Shown one piece after another: positions 997-20,078 of a stretch of 21,770 nt of DNA (within the stretch, counting starts at the first letter, position 1; every line of letters starts with the position of its first letter). The position numbers and the translations under genes are program-made. The DNA lies in UHGV virus genome UHGV-1845973. One strand, written 5' to 3'. Origin of the DNA: a virus. The notes beneath the pieces were generated by a model. That model did no database searches. It saw only the letters and a list, made by a program, of their open reading frames with translations, and was not told the origin of the DNA.

Positions 997-1150
997 TGAG
1001 AATCAAAATGCAATTTTAAAAGAGAAGCACCCAAAAATCCACACCAAAAGAGATAATAAAGAGTGATTATTGAGTTCATTTTGAGAATATCTTAATCACC
1101 CAATGAATGATGGTCTGACAGTGAGATTTATTTGAGGATGAATTGAGAAT
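997..1150. promoter_or_regulatory. Candidate parC-like centromere and promoter region upstream of parM
   Basis: (T/G)TGAG(A/T/G)-type repeats have TGAG cores at 1071 and 1082 (11 bp apart) and at 1122, 1133 and 1144 (11 bp apart). A further copy lies at 997. TTGAGAAT occurs exactly three times. R1 parC is built from 11-bp repeats flanking the par promoter. Confidence 0.35.
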
Positions 1151-1190
1151 ACAAAAATATTCCGAAATTTTACTCTCAGTTTGAATGACG

Positions 1191-1211
1191 AAATAACAAA
1201 GTGATGACAAT
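1191..1211 (+). promoter_or_regulatory. Candidate -35-less (late-type) promoter: AAATAACAAA-N5-GACAAT
   Basis: One of three copies of the same architecture; the others are at 3965 and 20058. It lies 25 nt upstream of the PAAR gene ATG, and a strong AGGAGG follows it. Confidence 0.45.
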
Positions 1212-1235
1212 AGGAGGATAACCAGGAGGTGAAGA

Positions 1236-1520
1236 ATGAGCGCAATAGCCACCAGCGACACCCTTTGTTCTGGTCACGGAGGATTTCCGCCGCGACTGGT
1301 AGCTGAAACTGTTCCCTGGTTCACCGTTAACGGTAAGCCAATTGTTGTAGATGGTGCCATGTTTCCCAGTCACACTGACGGTAACAGTGCACATCCAGGG
1401 GCAGCTGTATCGACGCGAGTATGGTTTTCGATAGGTGGAAAGGGAGTTGTCTGTGTAGGCGATCCGCTTTCTTGTGGTTCTGTTATCGCCAACGGCGAGG
1501 ATATTTTTCAGGTTGCATAA
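1236..1520 (+). CDS. PAAR-domain spike-tip protein
   Basis: The 94-aa product has the PAAR-like layout: CSGHGG, TVNGKPIVVDG, SHTDGNSAHPGA, IGGKGVVCVGDPLSCG. This three-fold pattern of beta-strand plus Gly/His/Cys matches T6SS and phage PAAR proteins. A strong SD (AGGAGG) precedes the ATG. Confidence 0.8.
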   Translation: MSAIATSDTLCSGHGGFPPRLVAETVPWFTVNGKPIVVDGAMFPSHTDGNSAHPGAAVSTRVWFSIGGKGVVCVGDPLSCGSVIANGEDIFQVA

Positions 1521-2326
1521 TGCTTGATTCAATAGGTGAAGTTAAAGCCTTCAAAATTCTGTCAGATGCCGGTATCTCTACACCAGAATCTATAACCATA
1601 AGCCGGGCAGCGTCTGTAAAAGCCTCATCACTCGCCAGCGCCATACAGGGAATAGTTCACGCCGATAAAACCTATCCTGATTCTGTTTCGGCCTGGACTA
1701 CTCAATTGCTTGGCTTTTCTGAACAGCTAAATGAGGCCAGCAAAGCGTCTTCATTACTGGCTGATTCTCTTTCCCCATACACCAAGCCATCAGAGCTGTT
1801 ACAGATGAAGATTGGCTGGGAATGCTACGTAAAAGGTAACGAGCTGACCCCCATACCTGCTTTCGCCCTTGTTGAGGGGATGGGGAATGTTTCCATTCCG
1901 CAATCTCTAACGGACGCATTGACGGCGCTAAAACTTGATGCTCTGAAAACCGCCATGAACGCCATTAACGCAAAAATAGAAGCTGCCGGAAGTGCTGGTG
2001 GTGGTGATAGCAATGGTGGACAGGGTGGTACTGGGGGCGCTCAGGCTCCAGTCATTACTCAGGATGAAATTGATGCTTTACGGGAAGCAGTGACAGCCGC
2101 CGAAGTTTTACTCTCCGAAATTAACTCAGCAAGTGAGAGTGTCGTAGCCCTTACAGGTCGCATTAAAACGTCAACCACTCAGGCAACCAAAGGTTTAGAA
2201 AACGCTGTCGCCATCACGTTAACTGGTTCTCTACTGGATGATGCAGTAATGAGTCCGGCAATCAGTTTAATCATGCCACAAGGCGTTATCGATGCGCTCC
2301 AAAAGAACACCAAAAAGGAACAATAG
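1520..2326 (+). CDS. Hypothetical protein (268 aa), translationally coupled to the PAAR gene
   Basis: The ATG at 1520 overlaps the PAAR stop (TAATG). The ORF-track start at 1421 would overlap the PAAR gene by 100 nt and is unlikely. The protein looks helical, has a central Gly-rich linker (GSAGGGDSNGGQGGTGG) and no TM segment. I recognise no family. Confidence 0.6.
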   Translation: MLDSIGEVKAFKILSDAGISTPESITISRAASVKASSLASAIQGIVHADKTYPDSVSAWTTQLLGFSEQLNEASKASSLLADSLSPYTKPSELLQMKIGWECYVKGNELTPIPAFALVEGMGNVSIPQSLTDALTALKLDALKTAMNAINAKIEAAGSAGGGDSNGGQGGTGGAQAPVITQDEIDALREAVTAAEVLLSEINSASESVVALTGRIKTSTTQATKGLENAVAITLTGSLLDDAVMSPAISLIMPQGVIDALQKNTKKEQ

Positions 2327-2381
2327 CAACACCACTTAGGAACACAAAAGGATGTGAATTGGTACATGTTTAACACCAAAA

Positions 2382-2855
2382 ATGAACCTGAAGAGGATGG
2401 TTTTGAAAAAGATAATTTTGATTGTAATTGCGCTTTTAGCCATTTCTGGAATTTACCGAACAACGACGGCAGTTATCGAACACATCAGGTATGTCCGATC
2501 GCTTGAAGACTCAAAATCACAACTGGAAAGCACGAACAACACGCTTTCTACCGCATTACAGTTAAGTGAGAACGCTCGCTCAGCCATGCTGACCGAAAAC
2601 GAAAGAATTAAAGCACTGGAAAAGGAGTACCAGCGCAAAACAGCAGAACTGAATGCCAACCTAATCAAACAACGAGAGGAAAGCCAGAATGAAATCACTC
2701 GCCTTGAAAATGCGTTACGCCGTGCTGGGATTAACGATGTGCGTGTGCCTGATGACGTTATCAGGATGCAGCGGGAACGGGCAAAAGCCATCAACCAGCG
2801 TGCCAGTGAAAATTACCGTAGAAGCCACCAGCAAGCCGCAGGCAAATCTGATTGA
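2382..2855 (+). CDS. i-spanin (Rz-like inner-membrane spanin subunit)
   Basis: It has an N-terminal TM anchor (KKIILIVIALLAISGIY) followed by a long charged coiled-coil-like periplasmic domain. A lipoprotein ORF is embedded in its +1 frame. The start is ambiguous between 2382 and 2397. Confidence 0.75.
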   Translation: MNLKRMVLKKIILIVIALLAISGIYRTTTAVIEHIRYVRSLEDSKSQLESTNNTLSTALQLSENARSAMLTENERIKALEKEYQRKTAELNANLIKQREESQNEITRLENALRRAGINDVRVPDDVIRMQRERAKAINQRASENYRRSHQQAAGKSD

Positions 2856-3021
2856 TTACTCCCCTTGTTTAGTGCCAGAGGACACGCCAGTGCTGTTAAA
2901 CAAGTATCCGACATACGCTGAACAGTTATTCAGCACGATCGACGAATGCAACCAACGAAACGCACTGAATAACCAAAAAAACAGGGAGATTTGGGAAGGG
3001 AAGGGGGATCAAGGCTCCTGA
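2689..3021 (+). CDS. o-spanin (Rz1-like outer-membrane lipoprotein spanin subunit)
   Basis: The signal peptide ends in the lipobox L-S-G-C (Cys27). The mature part is Pro-rich and contains additional Cys residues. The gene starts inside the i-spanin gene in the +1 frame and extends 166 nt beyond it (overlapped architecture). GAGAGGA lies 8 nt upstream of the ATG at 2689. Confidence 0.75.
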   Translation: MKSLALKMRYAVLGLTMCVCLMTLSGCSGNGQKPSTSVPVKITVEATSKPQANLIDYSPCLVPEDTPVLLNKYPTYAEQLFSTIDECNQRNALNNQKNREIWEGKGDQGS

Positions 3022-3467
3022 AGCCAGATGTCCTGGCTGTCAGCTTCTTCGAAACCGTGACAGACGTTAAAGTCACTCAAGCGATACTGACGCTGACGGC
3101 CTCTATTTCGCTCATGCCAATGCATGTATCCACCAGCAAATGCCAGCGGACAATCACTATAGTCTATGTAACCAATACCATTCCCCAAACGTGCTTCGCG
3201 CGCACCGGCTTTCCAGGACAGTAGAAAAGAGTCACGATCCGCCAGCATAACAACAAAATCGTCCGGATCTCCGATACAGTGAAGAATACCTGCCTTACAT
3301 AACTGCTTGAGCGCTTTGGGCTGGCTCAGGATGTCTTCTCCGTAATACTGAAAACAATCATCAACAACAGCGGGATAGCCTGCCGGGGGATTCAGGCTGG
3401 TTGGTATAGCTGACGCGATCGCCAGCATTAAGCGATATTGTGTTTTTGATGGGTTAACGTGACTCAT
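3009..3467 (-). CDS. Hypothetical protein (152 aa), second gene of the minus-strand cassette
   Basis: SD AAGGGA lies 4 nt upstream of the ATG, which is 17 nt after the upstream gene's stop. The 3' end overlaps the convergent o-spanin gene by 13 nt. A segment PKALKQLCKAGILHCIGD could be a winged-helix. I recognise no family. Confidence 0.55.
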   Translation of the reverse strand: MSHVNPSKTQYRLMLAIASAIPTSLNPPAGYPAVVDDCFQYYGEDILSQPKALKQLCKAGILHCIGDPDDFVVMLADRDSFLLSWKAGAREARLGNGIGYIDYSDCPLAFAGGYMHWHERNRGRQRQYRLSDFNVCHGFEEADSQDIWLQEP

Positions 3468-3483: not shown

Positions 3484-3918
3484 TCATTGTCGCCATGCAT
3501 TTTTTAACTCAGGAATATCTGCCATTTCAATTAACTTGCGAAGTCCAGCACTGACTTTCCCATTGCCAACCATAGCAAGCCAATCTCTTACAGCTTTCGG
3601 CATGTAGAGCGTTGCAGTTACCGGCTCTTCAACCCTGGCAGGACATCCGCATACAGGCCATTTAATTGACTCCATAACTTCGGATGCCGGGGTGAGGGCG
3701 GGGACATTGAGTATATCTCTACCAGAAAACTGGATAACGATCCGTTCAGCGAGCGAGAGTATCTCACTTTCGGCAAGAATTGATGCCAACTGCGCCTCAA
3801 CAAGAAAGCGACTTGTTGTGTTCAGAGAGTGGCTCTTAGCGCCATTTTTATACGAAACAAAGATTCGATACGCCATAACTCTAATGATTTGTGTTAGAAA
3901 ACTAAAATTAAACCACAT
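3484..3918 (-). CDS. Hypothetical protein with C-terminal ribbon-helix-helix (Arc/MetJ-like) DNA-binding domain
   Basis: The C-terminus TATLYMPKAVRDWLAMVGNGKVSAGLRKLIEMA fits the RHH beta-alphaA-alphaB pattern seen in Arc and Mnt. The N-terminal domain of about 85 aa is unassigned. The start is either ATG 3918 or ATG 3876 (MAYRIF...). A TAAAAT -10-like hexamer lies on the minus strand at 3949..3944. Confidence 0.5.
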   Translation of the reverse strand: MWFNFSFLTQIIRVMAYRIFVSYKNGAKSHSLNTTSRFLVEAQLASILAESEILSLAERIVIQFSGRDILNVPALTPASEVMESIKWPVCGCPARVEEPVTATLYMPKAVRDWLAMVGNGKVSAGLRKLIEMADIPELKNAWRQ

Positions 3919-3964: not shown

Positions 3965-3985
3965 AAATCACAAAGTAGGTATTGT
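3965..3985 (+). promoter_or_regulatory. Candidate -35-less (late-type) promoter: AAATCACAAA-N5-TATTGT
   Basis: The motif and spacing are the same as at 1191 and 20058. It lies 50 nt upstream of the capsid gene start. The adjacent TTGACT (3959..3964) is only 15 nt from the hexamer, which is too close for a normal sigma70 -35. Confidence 0.45.
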
Positions 3986-5879: not shown

Positions 5880-6158
5880 ATGGCAAACATTCAAGTAACT
5901 ATCACGCCATCTGACGCAACAGACAAATCTTTCACTGTTGAGTCAGATCACCCTGAAATTGTCCGGGTTGATGGCACTACATGTACCGCTCTTAAGGCCG
6001 GGCAGGCAGTGCTGACAATCAAAACAAATGACGGCAATAAAACCGCACAGTGCACAGTCACTGTTAGGGAGGCACATAAAAGCGTAAGCACCGTCAGTGT
6101 TGAACCAACTACGAAAGAAGTAACCGTAGGCGATAACTTCACGGTAAGCCAATCCTGA
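5880..6158 (+). CDS. Bacterial Ig-like (Big_2-type) domain protein, probable head or tail decoration
   Basis: IQVTITPSDATDKSFTVESDHPEIVRVDGTTCTALKAGQAVLTIKTNDGNKTAQCTVTV has the Big_2 pattern (...V...G.v.al..G.a.it..t.dG....c.vtV). The C-terminus VSVEPTTKEVTVGDNFTV looks like the first strands of a second, truncated domain. Confidence 0.7.
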   Translation: MANIQVTITPSDATDKSFTVESDHPEIVRVDGTTCTALKAGQAVLTIKTNDGNKTAQCTVTVREAHKSVSTVSVEPTTKEVTVGDNFTVSQS

Positions 6159-11140: not shown

Positions 11141-11364
11141 TATGTGTGCTGTAGGGAAAGGTTTACGTTAAATGTGTGCTGCCGGGAAACCCCATTGCTC
11201 AAGATGTGTTGTAGAGGGAATGGTAATGGCAACATGTGTGCTGGAGGGGAATTTCGCATGTAAAGAGCGTCATTTATCCCTCCAGCACACATCTGAAATA
11301 AGCAATCCTCTGAAATTCCCTCCACCACACATCCAGACATGAAACTATCCCTTCAGCACACATT
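11141..11364. repeat. incA-like iteron array: seven 19-bp RepA-binding repeats downstream of repA
   Basis: Four copies have the GATGTGTGCTGGAGGGAAA orientation, at 11141, 11171, 11203 (diverged) and 11233. Three copies have the opposite orientation, at 11275, 11315 and 11346. The last overlaps the repA stop codon. The core CAGCACACAT/ATGTGTGCTG is conserved. Confidence 0.85.
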
Positions 11365-12227
11365 TAATCTGTTGGTTTAAGTTTCGGATTCCGAGAGTGA
11401 ACGATAATGAAGTTTTCACGACCTTGCTTTTCAATGGTGCAATCGAGATAACCTATTGTTTTTAACTGGTCTATAGCTTTTTTTATCGTTCTGTTTTGCT
11501 CACTTACCGATGACATCAAGGCTAATCTTTCACGTATTCTGGCAAATGAAATAGGTATTGGACGTGCCGGGAGGCTTTCTATAAAGGTATATATGGCCTG
11601 GGCTGCTTCTTTTTTAGGTAAAGCGCGAAGTGCGTGTTGCTGTAGAAGCACCCGATAGTCTAGCTGGAAGATTTCCCATAACTTGGAATCAGCCTCCAGT
11701 TCAACGACATCTGTTTCAAAGTCAAAATATCCCGTTTTAAGCAGGCCAGTATTGTAGCTTCCACGAGCACTTTTCCCTCTTTTGAATGAGATGCCTTTGT
11801 TGCGTAACCGACCTAAAGAATCGTGGATCGTGTTTCTTAATTTCCCATCAAGTCGCTTAGATGGAAATCCGCACGCCTTTGCAAATTCTTGAAAAGAAAG
11901 GCGAATTGTATTCGATGATAAGCCATACTTGCTAAATGAGTAGATTACCCCAATCCAGACTTTGAAATCAGTATCCATGTCCAAGCGAGGGCCAGTGATC
12001 TTGATGTTGTCGTAGCCTTCTGCTTGAGCTATTTCCAATTTGGAAAAAACAGATGATGCATCTATCTCGTTGTTTTCACCCTGTTTTTTAGTTGGTTTAG
12101 GGACGAAAACACCAAGCCGCATAAGTGCGACAGGTTGAACAGTATTGTTCGAATTAACTGTTAATTCTTTAGCCTTGCTTTCAATGTCAGCATAAAGAAT
12201 ATCAGAGATAAATGACTTATCCATCAA
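11364..12227 (-). CDS. repA: P1-type plasmid replication initiator RepA
   Basis: The 287-aa product is near-colinear with P1 RepA as I recall it: FISDILYADIESKAKELTVNSNNTVQPVALMRLGVFVPKP...ITGPRLDMDTDFK...LSFQEFAKACGFPSKRLD...ALPKKEAAQAIYTFIESLP...IVHSRNPKLK. It is flanked on both sides by P1-type 19-bp iterons. Confidence 0.95.
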   Translation of the reverse strand: MMDKSFISDILYADIESKAKELTVNSNNTVQPVALMRLGVFVPKPTKKQGENNEIDASSVFSKLEIAQAEGYDNIKITGPRLDMDTDFKVWIGVIYSFSKYGLSSNTIRLSFQEFAKACGFPSKRLDGKLRNTIHDSLGRLRNKGISFKRGKSARGSYNTGLLKTGYFDFETDVVELEADSKLWEIFQLDYRVLLQQHALRALPKKEAAQAIYTFIESLPARPIPISFARIRERLALMSSVSEQNRTIKKAIDQLKTIGYLDCTIEKQGRENFIIVHSRNPKLKPTD

Positions 12228-12280
12228 TAAGTTACCGTCATGTTGTGAATAAAGTTTACGACAGTGGATATCCGGCTTTT

Positions 12281-12384
12281 TTTCCCGTCAGCACACATCC
12301 TACATCCCGTCAGCACACATGTAAAACCCTCCAGCACACATATTTTTCCCGTCAGCACACATCGTTCTCCCTCCAGCACACATC
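12281..12384. repeat. incC-like origin iterons: five direct 19-bp repeats
   Basis: TTTCCC(GT/TC)CAGCACACATC-type repeats start at 12281, 12303, 12324, 12345 and 12366. The spacings are 22, 21, 21 and 21 bp, about two helical turns, and all copies share one orientation. They lie immediately upstream of repA, as in P1 oriR. Confidence 0.9.
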
Positions 12385-12429
12385 TGAATAGTGGTTAAAG
12401 CCTTATGTGGCGCGGCCTGAAGAGCTACG

Positions 12430-12492
12430 GGATCTATTTGGTACTATATGGATCTAATCAGGATCTATATATTGGATCTATCCTGTGGATAA
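12430..12492. other. oriR-like origin core: four GGATCTA heptamers carrying GATC (Dam) sites in an AT-rich stretch, plus a perfect DnaA box
   Basis: GATC occurs at 12431, 12451, 12462 and 12475, each within GGATCTA. TGTGGATAA at 12484..12492 is the reverse complement of TTATCCACA. A weaker DnaA-box-like AGTGGATAT lies at 12262..12270, between the iterons and repA. Confidence 0.8.
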
Positions 12493-12578
12493 AAAAGAAG
12501 AATTACAAAGCTCCACCCAATTTCACACACTACCTATCCTCCAACGAATAAACAGACATCTGCTTATCGGAGGAATAC

Positions 12579-13414: not shown

Positions 13415-16400
13415 ATGGATATCAGCCCATTAGTGACGTTGAACAATTACCGCAATGGCGAGCACTCCATATGTCAAAAGCCCTGGAAGAAAAATACAAA
13501 GCTCAAGCCGGGAAACGTTGATCGCGCTGGTAAAAGAGAGGTTATTTTGAAAGAGAATAAAGACCGTATCGCAATAATTGACGCTATTCAGGAAGCGAGC
13601 ACAAACGAACTTAAAGCTCTTGCTGAGGTAAAAGACGCCATTCTTTCTGGGGCAAGCACCATAACTCAACAGGACGAAAGGCAAGGCAGAGTTAGCAACA
13701 GACTATCACGCAGGCGTAAAGAGTACGAGCAAAGTACATCTGATAGCGTTAGAGATGTCCAAACTAACCCATATAAAAAACGTCTCCCTGCTAAAAAGGA
13801 GAGGGCACCGATAAACCAAACCGTGGACCGCTCTATCGTTGCAACGAACACACCAGAAAGTGTTCGCTCCGTGCAATCACGTCAGACCATCCGAAAATCG
13901 GACGGTTTTATACCGGTAGCTGCTAATTCAGCCCCTCTTGAACCACAATCCCCCCAAAGTCTAAAAGGCCCGCTGCGGGATAGTAATGGACGTTTTGTAT
14001 CCCAAAAAAGCAATGAGGATGTAGCCAGAAAAAAAGAATTGCAGAACGCACGTAAAGCCGACGCAAAATTACAAGCTGGCTTTCTCAGAAAGCTAGGTTC
14101 CATTATGGGGGTAGATGGCAATCGGTCTTCCAGTGAAGAGTCTTTAACAAATGCAGCTGGTGTCGGTGCTGGTGGGCCGTTCTGGATGGCGGCTCGTGGC
14201 ATGTACGACATAACTAAAGAGATCACAGGTAAAGCAGAATCTCTTAAAGAATGGGTAGAAAAGGGGAAAAAAGAAACATCAACCTCGAAAGCAATATCAC
14301 CAGTAATTACTTATCCGGCGGCGGTGAATTCTCAAAAAGCAACATCTGCAAAAGCGTTCAATAACGCTGTTGAGACAAAATCCGCACAAGCAGTAGAAGA
14401 GCAAACCAAAATCCTTCAGACCAATGACAACAAAATAATTGATGGTCTGGAAAATGTTTCTGACGAGATAGTTAAGCTTCGGAAATCAGTGTCTTCTGGA
14501 AATAAGTTCGGCTTAAGTGATCTCTGGAAAAATCGAGCAAGCAGAAGAAATAAAATCAATATTGGTGATCAGACGGGAAAAAATAAACGGAACAAATCGA
14601 AAAGGAAAGGACGCAATCTTGGGAAAAAAGCACTCTCCGCTGGCGAAAAAGTTGCTGCCGGTAGCGCTGCGGCTGGCACTGGTGTCGGAGCAGCAAAAGT
14701 AGTTAAAAATAAGATCAGCAAACCCAAAGATGTAAGCACTATCAGCGATACATCAAAGGGGATTGCAAAGGAAACAAAAAATACTGCTAAGGCCGTGAAG
14801 TCAGCTGGTGTTGTGGCTGAAGATGCCACCATTAAAACCGGCGAAGCCATTGCAAAGAAAAAAACTGAATCTGTAGCCCTCAAAAGTGCTGCAAAAATAG
14901 GTGTTAAATCAGCAGCATCCACAGCGGCAAGAGCGGTCCCTATCATCGGTTCGCTGGCAATGGCTGGATATGACGCCATAGATGGTTACACAGATACAGA
15001 GGCGCAAAAGGCAGCCTTTGGATTAAGTGACGATAATGCTGTATCCGAACAGCAAAAAACGGCTTACGCAACAGCTAATGTGCTCGATATGGGGGGCTTG
15101 GTGTCGGGCGCAACGAACTTGATAGGGAAAGGAATTTCTGCGCTAGGATTTGAAAGAGCAGGTGAAAAACTTCAGAATTTTGATACCGGAGATATTGCTC
15201 GTGGTGTTAACGGCGCGGTAGATATCACCAAATCTGTTTTTGGTAGCCTTAAGGATACATTTTTATCCACTGATGAAAACACGAAACAAGTAAAAAAAGC
15301 TGTTGAAGACGGCACCAAAAAAACTGTCGATGCGATTCATTCTCTAGGTGAACAATTACAAGGTGGGCGTAATGGCGAGGATGGAGTTGGTGAGCACGGG
15401 TATACTTCTCCAACTGAATTTAGTGCACCTGCCAACAACACCATTGCAGCGGATCTGAATATTGGCGGCAGCAACGCTAAAAACCGCAATTACCGAAATA
15501 ATAATCTCGGCAATCTTGTTTTTGCCAACCAGGAAGGGGCGACGCTGGAATCGCCAAATGCAAAAGGTGAACAACGTTTTGCGCGATTTAACACACCTGA
15601 AGAAGGGATCAGGGCACTGGCAAACCAGGTTTCCAGCTATTACAACGGCACCAGTGCCGCAGCGGGATATCAGAAGTTACAGACGGTATCCAGCATCATT
15701 TCAAAATGGGCACCGCCAAATGAGAACAATACTAACCAATATATTGATAACGTCAGTAAATATCTTGGTGTATCGCCTAATGAAAAAATAGATGTCAGCA
15801 AACCAGAGGTTATGACGCAATTAGTTCGTGCAATTGCGACGAAAGAAGGCGGAAATCCGGCAGTTAATAATGAGTTCATTAAGAACGCACTTGGAGCATT
15901 TAACACAAACACTGGTCGATGGGAGGGACAATTCTCTGACGAAACATTGGCGCGGATTAATAAAATTCAGAAAGAAAATGGTGGTCAGCTAATTGCCCGC
16001 GATTCGCAATATAGTGTTGGTCGCAAGGTAAAATATGCTAATGGAAAATCTCCAGCTCAACCAGTTTTGAATGCCGTTCCGACAGCAACACAACAGCCAA
16101 TTGAGGTTGCACAACATGCCCAGGCAGTCAAAAAGCCACAAAAAACAGGTAACCAACCACAACCGATTAATCCAGAGAACGCTGATGTTAATACCGGCTC
16201 TCCATCGAGTTTGCTTGAGCGGTTAATCACAATAAATGAAAGCGGAATCAGTGGTGCAAGTAATTTATTTGGCGGCGCGGCTACCAGCCTTGCTGGAACA
16301 AGTCTGGACCTGGTAAAGGATTTTGCGTTGGCTACTTCGTTTGGTTCTATATCTTCGCTTTCCGAAAAAGCGAAAGGAATGGATCAGGCTCTTACTGAAA

Positions 16401-17359
16401 AGATATCCGGCTTAACCGGTAAATCTTTTGGATTTAAAATAGCTTCTCAAGTGGCTGATATCGCAACAGCCATACAACAAAAACGCACTGTTAATCACGA
16501 TACAGAAATCATTGATCTACTTCCGGGAGATCAAGTATCCCCTTCTACTCCGAAAACCCCACAGCAGGAGCAGGCTCTAGCAATCAGCCAGGCTATGGAG
16601 GGCTTTTCATCTGCAGCGCCAGCACCGAAAACCCCACAGCAGGAGCAGGCTCTAGCAATCAACCAGGCTATGGCGGGAGCTGCGCCAGTAGTTACCTCTG
16701 GAAAACGAACTATCACGGCACCAAGTGATGTGCAGATTTATGACAACGGCTACAAGGTGGTTACAGGTGAGGATAAGAGCTTCTTTGGTTCGCTATTTGA
16801 TTCCACGGTGTCAGGGCTTAAACAGACAGGAACCGCAGTAATTCCTGCCGTTGGCGATAACCTTTCACGACTTGTTGGGGGGATTGATAGTACAGGGATA
16901 TTGAACGATCTTGTAATGCAGTCTACTGGGCAGAATAGTGCGATTGCGCGAGCTATTAGCCCATTAACAAGAAATGTTGGAGACTGGCTGAATGGGGGGA
17001 TTCAACAAACCGCTAATAGCATTAGGGGAATAGCAACTGGTGCCAATAACGCCATATTTGGCTCTGCTTCAGCTGTGCAAGAACCTTTTCTTGCTATGCC
17101 GCCACAACTCCCTACTGTAACCGATCTCGCACGAAGCGGAATAAGACAACCATTAACTACTGACACTATAAATAACGATCCTGCTATGTTGAAGGCGCTG
17201 GATAACATCTGCTCTATCCTGAACGATCTGCTGAATGTGAACAAGAACAATACAAAAGGCGATCCGGATAATGTTGTCAAAACATCGCAGCCGCAGCCGC
17301 GACCACGTGCGAGCACAACTATTAATGACCAGTCGCTGGATGCTCTGCTTGAGGATTAA
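13415..17359 (+). CDS. Tail tape-measure / injection protein (P1 Sit-like), 1314 aa
   Basis: It is the largest gene and lies just upstream of the baseplate genes. It has long Ala/Lys/Gly-rich helical and hydrophobic segments typical of tape-measure proteins (AAGSAAAGTGVGAAKVV, VPIIGSLAMAGYDAIDG). A globular domain is embedded at about 15480..15900. The start is ambiguous: ATG 13415 has no SD, while in-frame TTG 13547 has AAGAGAGG 5 nt upstream. Confidence 0.7.
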   Translation: MDISPLVTLNNYRNGEHSICQKPWKKNTKLKPGNVDRAGKREVILKENKDRIAIIDAIQEASTNELKALAEVKDAILSGASTITQQDERQGRVSNRLSRRRKEYEQSTSDSVRDVQTNPYKKRLPAKKERAPINQTVDRSIVATNTPESVRSVQSRQTIRKSDGFIPVAANSAPLEPQSPQSLKGPLRDSNGRFVSQKSNEDVARKKELQNARKADAKLQAGFLRKLGSIMGVDGNRSSSEESLTNAAGVGAGGPFWMAARGMYDITKEITGKAESLKEWVEKGKKETSTSKAISPVITYPAAVNSQKATSAKAFNNAVETKSAQAVEEQTKILQTNDNKIIDGLENVSDEIVKLRKSVSSGNKFGLSDLWKNRASRRNKINIGDQTGKNKRNKSKRKGRNLGKKALSAGEKVAAGSAAAGTGVGAAKVVKNKISKPKDVSTISDTSKGIAKETKNTAKAVKSAGVVAEDATIKTGEAIAKKKTESVALKSAAKIGVKSAASTAARAVPIIGSLAMAGYDAIDGYTDTEAQKAAFGLSDDNAVSEQQKTAYATANVLDMGGLVSGATNLIGKGISALGFERAGEKLQNFDTGDIARGVNGAVDITKSVFGSLKDTFLSTDENTKQVKKAVEDGTKKTVDAIHSLGEQLQGGRNGEDGVGEHGYTSPTEFSAPANNTIAADLNIGGSNAKNRNYRNNNLGNLVFANQEGATLESPNAKGEQRFARFNTPEEGIRALANQVSSYYNGTSAAAGYQKLQTVSSIISKWAPPNENNTNQYIDNVSKYLGVSPNEKIDVSKPEVMTQLVRAIATKEGGNPAVNNEFIKNALGAFNTNTGRWEGQFSDETLARINKIQKENGGQLIARDSQYSVGRKVKYANGKSPAQPVLNAVPTATQQPIEVAQHAQAVKKPQKTGNQPQPINPENADVNTGSPSSLLERLITINESGISGASNLFGGAATSLAGTSLDLVKDFALATSFGSISSLSEKAKGMDQALTEKISGLTGKSFGFKIASQVADIATAIQQKRTVNHDTEIIDLLPGDQVSPSTPKTPQQEQALAISQAMEGFSSAAPAPKTPQQEQALAINQAMAGAAPVVTSGKRTITAPSDVQIYDNGYKVVTGEDKSFFGSLFDSTVSGLKQTGTAVIPAVGDNLSRLVGGIDSTGILNDLVMQSTGQNSAIARAISPLTRNVGDWLNGGIQQTANSIRGIATGANNAIFGSASAVQEPFLAMPPQLPTVTDLARSGIRQPLTTDTINNDPAMLKALDNICSILNDLLNVNKNNTKGDPDNVVKTSQPQPRPRASTTINDQSLDALLED
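16550..16673 (+). repeat. 75-bp-period tandem duplication inside the tape-measure gene
   Basis: The 49-bp cores at 16550..16598 and 16625..16673 differ at a single base. They encode PKTPQQEQALAI(S/N)QAM twice, 25 aa apart. Confidence 0.9.
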
Positions 17360-17364
17360 TACTG

Positions 17365-17739
17365 ATGCTTTACGAAATAGACGCAAGACTTCAAACGAAT
17401 GAGAGCGGTGTCATTATTGCAGAAGGAAGTACCGCAGCATGGATGGCCCGACTTGACGAGTGGCTACGAACCCCTGAAGGGAGTGTTTATGGTTTACCCT
17501 CTTGGGGGAGTCCAATGGAAGAATTTAAGCATGAACCATTCGGCTCTGAAACTTCGCACATAGTTGAAGTGGCTATTGAAGGGAGAATGATGAAAAAACT
17601 ACGACAAGACTTGCCAGGTTTGGATGTGCAGGGGATTCGTTGCACATCAATTTCTGAAGATTCTTTATTAATTAGTTTTTATGCGAAAGGTGGGAGCATG
17701 GATATTGTTATGCAGAAATCAAGTGGGGTGGGCGCGTGA
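17365..17739 (+). CDS. Baseplate wedge protein, gpW/gp25-like
   Basis: The 124-aa product shows the pattern WLRTPEGSVYGLPSWGSPMEEF...IVEVAIEGRMMKKLRQDLPGLDVQGIRCTS...LLISFY. This matches the GPW_gp25 layout (T..G.r...p.fG..l..l.f.......i...i...l....P...v..v.v). It lies directly upstream of the gpJ-like gene. Confidence 0.7.
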   Translation: MLYEIDARLQTNESGVIIAEGSTAAWMARLDEWLRTPEGSVYGLPSWGSPMEEFKHEPFGSETSHIVEVAIEGRMMKKLRQDLPGLDVQGIRCTSISEDSLLISFYAKGGSMDIVMQKSSGVGA

Positions 17740-20057: not shown

Positions 20058-20078
20058 AAATCACAAACTGAGCATACT
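20058..20078 (+). promoter_or_regulatory. Candidate -35-less (late-type) promoter: AAATCACAAA-N5-CATACT
   Basis: This is the third copy of the motif architecture. It lies 39 nt upstream of the ATG at 20117, which heads the tail-fibre operon. Confidence 0.45.

Follow-up and report, generated by a model that had tools for sequence, protein, structure and literature searches.

Genes at the locus

We have analyzed a stretch of 21,770 nucleotides from the virus genome UHGV-1845973 (hereafter the window). Two adjacent genes near its beginning, one of 94 and the other of 268 codons, are followed by a pair of spanin genes. Both open reading frames, at 1236-1520 and 1520-2326 on the plus strand, exist as an earlier reading made from the letters alone (the sequence-only reading) had described them. 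The features of the region are the following.

1193-1211, plus strand: late-promoter-like site, with a -22-type box (ATAACAAAGT), a 3-nt spacer (GAT) and a -10-like hexamer (GACAAT, 1206-1211), and no -35
1224-1229, plus strand: Shine-Dalgarno AGGAGG, 6 nt 5' of the ATG of the PAAR gene, read from the sequence
1236-1520, plus strand: 94-aa PAAR protein of the spike tip, orthologous to P1 UpfC and T4 gp5.4
1509-1522, plus strand: coupling junction, made of CAGGT (an SD-like AGGT within the last PAAR codons), 5 nt (TGCAT) and the stop/start TAATG
1520-2326, plus strand: UpfB-family protein, 268 aa, pI 4.6, all-helical, predicted subunit of a spike-tip "tripod"
1997-2041, plus strand: Gly/Ser/Gln-rich low-complexity loop (residues 160-174) between the helices 140-158 and 181-238 of that protein
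2382-2855, plus strand: i-spanin, Rz-like, counterpart of P1 PpfA (phrog_214, E 7.6e-16)
2689-3021, plus strand: o-spanin lipoprotein, Rz1-like, counterpart of P1 Mlp, which also has 110 aa (phrog_456, E 4e-5)

The assignment of the first gene to the PAAR proteins, already proposed from the letters, is well supported. The protein matched the PDB chain 9vyi_A, named "UpfC", over residues 1-93 (E 1.8e-35), the family phrog_281 annotated as "PAAR" (E 1.3e-28) and T4 gp5.4 in 5iv5 (E 1.8e-5). The Pfam PAAR_motif (PF05488) was found with an E value of 8e-6 and 26.4 bits against a cut-off of 27 bits, a match that is marginal when taken alone. The protein is a minimal cone with no N- or C-terminal extension. 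Five of its residues (H14, H46, H53, C73 and C80) were invariant over 18 lineages and can be aligned with P1 UpfC. In published PAAR structures, conserved His and Cys residues near the apex of the cone bind a metal. Cryo-EM of P1 has placed UpfC as a monomeric tip on the gp5 trimer and, by orthology, the PAAR protein of the window would sit on the tip of the gp5 spike in the D6-type particle.

The spanin genes had been described as part of the operon headed by the PAAR gene, and the profile matches listed above agree with that. The i-spanin has an N-terminal TM segment (Kyte-Doolittle 2.48) and appears as a membrane-anchored coiled-coil protein; its true start is likely the ATG at 2403, preceded by GAGG, as in orf55 of phage D6. 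The gene of the o-spanin begins inside that of the i-spanin in another frame. Its product carries an LSGC lipobox at residues 24-27 and matched the Pfam family O_Spanin_T7 with E 0.01; the P1 counterpart, mlp, is annotated as "Rz-like spanin". Scanning for terminators gave no terminator-like site between the PAAR, UpfB, i-spanin and o-spanin genes.

Relation to phages D6, P1 and T4

Escherichia phage D6, a P1-like phage-plasmid (plasmid prophage), was about 98% identical to the bases 1000-3100 of the window. Over the whole window the identity was 96-98%, with two exceptions, a segment of the replicon that has been replaced and a portion of the tape-measure gene. The D6 record labels the PAAR gene as "similar to P1 gene upfC" and the 268-aa gene as "similar to P1 gene upfB", and the reference record of P1 had already noted the likeness of the PAAR protein to T4 ORF5.4. 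The homology of both genes to P1 was, in this way, known from the D6 annotation, and the role of the P1 homolog was published in 2026. Rfam and tRNA scans of the window gave no matches.

The distance of more than 15 kb between the PAAR gene and the baseplate genes holds, because the wedge genes pmgA, bplA and 16 (after the D6 annotation) begin at 17365 in the window. Genes 5 and 6, which code for the spike and the hub, the direct partners of the PAAR protein, are outside the window, and in D6 they are found about 7 kb away on the opposite side. The PAAR gene had been described as detached from the baseplate cluster, which is nothing unusual: such a scattered layout is the norm of the P1/D6 group and no peculiarity of the window.

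P1 itself has the same gene order, upfC-upfB-ppfA (i-spanin)-mlp (o-spanin). Its PAAR protein has 94 aa and is about 55% identical to that of the window, and P1 UpfB has a low-complexity loop rich in Gly and Ser at the same position. There are differences too. P1 UpfB is only 27-28% identical to the protein of the window; in P1 the two genes are separated by an 8-nt spacer with its own SD, whereas the D6-type genes overlap by 1 nt; and the P1 block is flanked by uhr/hrdC and upfA/repA, whereas the window has ParM partition genes. Besides, the structural and genetic data are those of the P1 pair.

In T4, gp5.4 (97 aa) is a small single-domain PAAR cone sitting on the gp5 needle (5iv5, 4ku0), like the protein described here, but it is encoded beside gene 5. 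We know of no UpfB homolog in T4. T4 gp5.4 is dispensable for plaque formation (PMC9024508), and a gp5.1-gp5.4 complex in this phage is an AlphaFold3 suggestion only (PMC13611949).

The 268-aa protein belongs to the UpfB family

Sequence comparison shows that the 268-aa protein and P1 UpfB are distantly homologous along their whole length. In a tblastn alignment the two were 27% identical at a coverage of 98% (E 7e-7), and hhalign gave a probability of 99.9% (E 2e-34, 258 columns). Both proteins span the full length of the family phrog_1559, the one from the window with E 4.5e-111 over positions 1-263 of 263. The absence of any known motif, noted in the earlier reading, is in keeping with the Pfam search, in which no family matched the protein at E <=1 and none was common to 56 members of the UpfB family. 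The lack of a TM segment was also borne out, the maximum of the Kyte-Doolittle 19-residue window being 1.39, and neither a signal peptide nor a lipobox was found in the protein.

The AlphaFold2 model, computed from an alignment of 34 sequences, had a pLDDT of 88 and a pTM of 0.79, and consists of ten helices, the longest at residues 181-238. From the letters the protein had been pictured as two helical domains joined by a Gly-rich linker. The helical nature and the Gly-rich stretch stand, the two domains do not: with a pTM of 0.79 the helices would rather pack into a single elongated unit, of which the Gly-rich stretch would be a loop, than form two independent domains. Residues 160-174 were predicted as disordered (pLDDT <50). 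Among alleles that were at least 94% identical, this loop showed indels of 1, 4, 7 and more residues, and across the family it varies in length and in its composition of G, S, T, A and P. Conserved positions of the protein include Y52-P53, IGWEC (98-102), N150 and A247/P253.

Sequence searches of the PDB, by means of the protein itself and of the profile of its family, retrieved noise from Gly linkers or designed proteins and no chain of the UpfB family. Foldseek of the model against the PDB found nothing specific (best E 0.05, TM <=0.27). A confidently predicted all-helical model with no solved relative is one of the additions of this analysis. The AlphaFold, Foldseek and homology checks that had been proposed for the protein led to the helical model and to UpfB; a homology to an unrelated function, such as lysis regulation, was sought and not found.

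In a library of viral structures the best Foldseek matches of the model were DUF7217 proteins (E 1.3e-3, TM 0.47-0.64), which are found in Ackermannviridae and other large myophages, have a similar length (190-240 aa) and are all-helical too. However, the member located in Serratia phage 3M has no sequence-profile similarity to the UpfB family (hhalign probability 0.6%), and we have discarded a kinship in favour of a generic likeness of helical bundles. Its gene has no PAAR gene beside it, and a search of the first 100 kb of that phage revealed no UpfC-like PAAR ORF.

The junction between the two genes

The sequence at the junction reads GTT GCA TAA TG, with the stop codon TAA at 1518-1520 and the start ATG at 1520-1522. 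The overlap of the PAAR stop and the start of the 268-aa gene described before is, then, real and amounts to a single shared base at 1520. The proteins of the family begin with M-L-D/E, which is invariant or nearly so, and for this reason we prefer the start at 1520 over the longer ORF that opens at 1421 in the same frame. The frame of UpfB, open from 1421, is -1 with respect to the PAAR frame. A run of five to seven T is found at the PAAR/UpfB junction in many D6-type lineages.

The same 1-nt overlap, as TAATG or TGATG, was present in 45 of 50 related loci, and three more had a gap of 0-1 nt. P1 and JK004 alone among the 50 had a spacer of 8-9 nt with its own AGGAG. Within the last PAAR codons, 8-12 nt 5' of the UpfB ATG, the motif (C/G/A)AGGT or GAGGT is conserved across the loci. 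The overlap had been taken to imply stoichiometric co-expression, which does not follow. The ratio reported for the virion is one UpfC to three or nine UpfB, and in the branch of P1 and JK004 the overlap is replaced by the spacer with AGGAG.

Distribution of the family and conservation of gene order

The family is narrow. An exhaustive HMM search of 1.84 billion representatives retrieved only 77 clusters of UpfB, most of them full-length (236-265 aa), the others being shorter partials and two long repeat-type matches. The named sources of the matches were Escherichia, Salmonella, Citrobacter, Enterobacter, Serratia and Pantoea. The larger contigs bearing UpfB matches in a word-index search were of about 80-105 kb.

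We examined 50 loci coming from phage records, IMG/VR, GTDB genomes and metagenome contigs. A 94-aa PAAR gene was located directly upstream of the UpfB gene in every one of these loci, all with an UpfB identity of at least 28%. In 18 lineages we also looked downstream, and the spanin pair followed directly in each of them, in several cases with the start of the i-spanin gene overlapping or abutting the UpfB stop. The four genes behave as a block, since the flanking genes differ between lineages (ParM partition genes in the window, ParE/ParD in L004). This conserved order of PAAR, UpfB and spanin genes, across loci with UpfB identities of at least 28%, is described here for the first time.

The identities to the two proteins of the window fall together along the lineages, with PAAR/UpfB values of 96/79, 88/60, 79/51, 63/41 and 55/28%. 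The PAAR identity was always above that of UpfB, whose rate of divergence is about twice that of PAAR. L056 represents the most distant branch, and its UpfB-like gene has neither a PAAR gene nor spanins in its neighbourhood. The gene before it codes for a methyltransferase and is joined to it by the same kind of junction (GAGG...TAATG), while the gene after it codes for a gp23-like capsid protein. Other members of this distant UpfB-like branch gave no matches, P0115 in the phage collection and P0122 in IMG/VR.

A motif resembling a late promoter

The 10-nt box found upstream of the PAAR gene and its spacing to the -10-like hexamer recur in the window 5' of gene 23 (3967-3985) and of gene R (20060-20078). 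In D6 the same motif is found 5' of mat, of the 7-24-6-5 operon and of the pmgB-sit operon, at sites that were outside the definition of the pattern. Altogether the motif precedes six structural or late operons with a fixed spacing. The number of matches in D6 was 8 against 1.24 expected, and none of 100 shuffles reached 8. That such a late-promoter-like motif is common to the structural operons is also a new observation.

The layout, with a box near -22, a -10 and no -35, is like that of the annotated late promoter LP23 of P1. LP23 has a 9-bp -22 box and a 4-nt spacer before its -10, and the box of the window differs from it in sequence. A promoter and terminator scan found no sigma-70 -35/-10 promoter 5' of the PAAR gene on the plus strand. 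The D6-type motif is absent from the corresponding upstream region of P1, whose reference record has no promoter annotated ahead of upfC. The motif of the window suggests that the PAAR and UpfB genes would be expressed late, together with the virion genes, from a putative P1-type (Lpa-dependent) promoter with a predicted start near 1218. Two terminator-like matches fell within the PAAR coding region, and sites of this kind were fewer than expected by chance.

A probable spike cap and its tripod

We consider it quite probable that the 94-aa and 268-aa genes correspond to upfC and upfB in a D6-like phage-plasmid related to P1, and that they code for the spike cap and the subunit of a tripod. In January 2026 a cryo-EM study of P1 described UpfB as forming an alpha-helical "tripod" that is fixed on UpfC, the PAAR tip (PMC12810830). 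Of the options offered in the sequence-only reading, a tip decoration is therefore the one supported by homology, because the 268-aa protein is a homolog of UpfB. In P1 the placement of UpfB comes from an AlphaFold3 trimer fitted to density of medium resolution, with no atomic model (PMC12810830). The failure of the family profile to find a PDB chain is consistent with this. A second study, with an independent AlphaFold3 model of the complex, described the P1 tripod as three copies of UpfB on UpfC with distal loops (PMC13611949). The copy number is in dispute, three trimers in one case (PMC12810830) and three copies in the other (PMC13611949).

In the D6-type particle, a single-copy PAAR cone would cap the trimeric beta-helix spike of gp5 at the centre of the baseplate. 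The elongated helical UpfB homolog would bind the faces of the cone and form a three-legged tripod beyond the spike tip, with the flexible Gly-rich loop probably at the distal end of each leg. Both genes, the first two of the four-gene cassette PAAR-UpfB-i-spanin-o-spanin, would be transcribed late from the P1-type late promoter, and translation of UpfB would be coupled to that of PAAR via the embedded AGGT and the TAATG overlap. On contraction of the sheath the spike, the cap and the tripod would be the first to enter the outer membrane. The D6-type UpfB homolog may thus do the same as UpfB does in P1, and the tripod may affect penetration or host range.

According to the P1 literature, neither deleting upfB or upfC in frame nor knocking them down by CRISPRi leads to a plaque defect on laboratory E. 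coli. Since both are dispensable for P1 plaques, no phenotype ties the tripod to entry. To our knowledge no phenotype has been shown for spike-tip proteins in any phage. Yet no part of a contractile injection system is as conserved as the spike-tip proteins. The first description of a helical tripod on the spike tip dates from 2026 and concerns P1 alone. The two-gene module is always joined to the spanin genes throughout the P1/D6 phage-plasmids of Enterobacterales. Testable handles on the role of the tripod are provided by the conservation of the cassette, by the speed at which UpfB diverges in comparison with PAAR and by the changing length of the Gly-rich loop. A name, UpfB homolog, is now available for the "hypothetical protein" annotated in D6-like plasmids.

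UpfB could alternatively be a chaperone that is not part of the virion, which folds the PAAR cone or brings it to the gp5 spike before being released. Its tight coupling to the PAAR gene, its being dispensable for plaques and its acidic and helical character, shared with many chaperones, would all fit. UpfB was also undetected in the LC-MS/MS table of P1 virions, from which gp5, gp26, PmgA and UpfC were missing too, several of the undetected proteins being true baseplate components of low copy number. We find this explanation quite improbable, because the three-legged density at the P1 spike tip was fitted by the UpfB model and no likeness to known families of PAAR chaperones or adaptors appeared. 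Moreover, PAAR is itself dispensable, so a conserved chaperone of 27 kDa dedicated to it would be odd.

The sequence-only reading had drawn an analogy with the T6SS. In an explanation of this type UpfB would be a cargo delivered by the spike tip, and would act in the periplasm or on the membrane of the infected cell. Such a function is compatible with the location in a tripod, and T6SS loci are similar in that the PAAR cone caps a trimeric spike and the partner gene lies immediately 3'. However, the PAAR protein of the window has no extension, being just the 94-aa cone, and its gene is in a late phage operon with spanins. Pfam and structural searches of the 268-aa protein found no effector, immunity, Eag/DUF1795, DUF4123 or DUF2169 domain. 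The analogy, either as cargo or as adaptor, is not supported by these searches, and we give the cargo only a slim chance. That UpfB is a lysis accessory protein working with the spanins that directly follow it in 18 of 18 lineages, with start and stop overlapping or abutting in several, is the least credible explanation and has a very faint chance: devoid of signal peptide, TM segment and lipobox it should be cytoplasmic while spanins act in the envelope, it has no likeness to holins, antiholins or other lysis regulators, the P1 density puts it on the virion and the homolog in L056 has no adjacent spanins.

Staying with UpfB as the tripod subunit, a more speculative extension is that the PAAR-UpfB-spanin block is a self-contained cassette for crossing the envelope, mobile as one piece among P1/D6-type phage-plasmids. 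The fast-evolving body of the tripod and its distal Gly-rich loops of variable length would then be the first to meet the outer membrane and would work as a host-specific trigger or determinant of penetration. We regard this extension as unlikely. If true, variation of the tripod would tune the range of strains that can be infected, an effect invisible in plaque assays on E. coli K-12. In a more remote variant, occasional slippage of the ribosome at the run of five to seven T could produce a covalent fusion of PAAR and UpfB.

Expression and junction of the PAAR and UpfB genes

In D6-type phages (Escherichia phage D6 is the P1-like phage-plasmid about 98% identical to the genome analyzed here), we have found a common motif, ATMACAAAST-N3 followed by a -10-like hexamer, 5' of six late or structural operons.

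1193-1211, 3967-3985 and 20060-20078: motif sites in the window
4992, 9699 and 31601: motif sites in the D6 locus L001

The shared motif is probably a D6-type late promoter, putatively dependent on Lpa, the late-promoter activator of P1. Its box differs from that of the annotated P1 late promoter LP23, which reads AAGTGACTT.

The UpfB gene lies in the -1 frame with respect to the PAAR gene, and this frame is already open from 1421 (region 1421-1522). Just 5' of the junction there is a T5 run (1504-1508), which extends to T6-T7 in some lineages. A rare -1 slip would produce a PAAR-UpfB fusion. This arrangement is probably meaningless, because a classical slippery heptamer is absent and P1 lacks a T run.

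Within UpfB, alleles at least 94% identical differ in the length of the Gly-rich loop (1997-2041), to which indels are restricted, giving proteins of 260-268 aa. This variation is consistent with slippage in GGT/GGC-rich DNA.

Distant and fold-level relatives of UpfB

3001-3765 of L056, an IMG/VR contig of 87 kb: gene of the most distant UpfB-like branch
16871-17593 of L012, a locus of Serratia phage vB_SmaA_3M: DUF7217 protein gene

Neither a PAAR gene nor spanins adjoin the UpfB-like gene of L056. It is directly preceded by a DNA methyltransferase gene, with a GAGG...TAATG overlap as in the PAAR-UpfB junction, and immediately after it comes the gene for a gp23-like major capsid protein, which shares 34% identity with its counterpart in the window. 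In a viral structure library, DUF7217 proteins of Ackermannviridae-type phages came nearest to UpfB in predicted fold (TM ~0.5), with no detectable sequence similarity between the two. The DUF7217 genes of these phages show no linkage to a PAAR gene.

Spanins and neighbouring small genes

In the D6 record the o-spanin is a 73-aa product (window 2800-3021) devoid of signal peptide and LSGC lipobox. This start looks mis-annotated, since it is the ORF from 2689 (2689-3021, 110 aa, SD GAGAGGAAAG) whose length and lipobox match those of P1 Mlp. For the i-spanin (2382-2855), the probable start is 2403 and not 2382.

3009-3467 and 3484-3918 (minus strand): two convergent genes between spanins and capsid gene, phrog_8101 and phrog_7830 in this order
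5880-6158: Ig-like protein gene, 92 aa (Big_2, E 2.6e-8)

Between the first convergent gene and the o-spanin stop there is an overlap of 13 nt; in P1 the corresponding place is taken by upfA. The Ig-like protein, annotated in D6 as a structural protein, may decorate the capsid or the tail. Its gene sits between the major capsid and sheath genes.

Replicon and tape measure

11364-12227, minus strand: repA, Rep3-type (Pfam Rep3_N, E 2e-6)
12228-12560: origin-like region
13415-17359: Sit homolog, tape-measure/transglycosylase (divergent part ~16444-16843)

Compared with D6, the window appears to carry an exchanged replicon, because 11157-12522 lacks nucleotide similarity to D6 although both flanks are 96-98% identical. 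The Rep3-type repA lies within this segment. The origin-like region contains five iterons, CC(G/C)TCAGCACACAT, four GATC-bearing repeats (GGATCTAT) and a DnaA-box-like site (TGTGGATAA).

The Sit homolog has 1314 aa in the window versus 1260 aa in D6; among the additional 54 aa is a segment, PKTPQQEQALAI(S/N)QAM, that is duplicated. If helical, the added length would predict a slightly longer tail.
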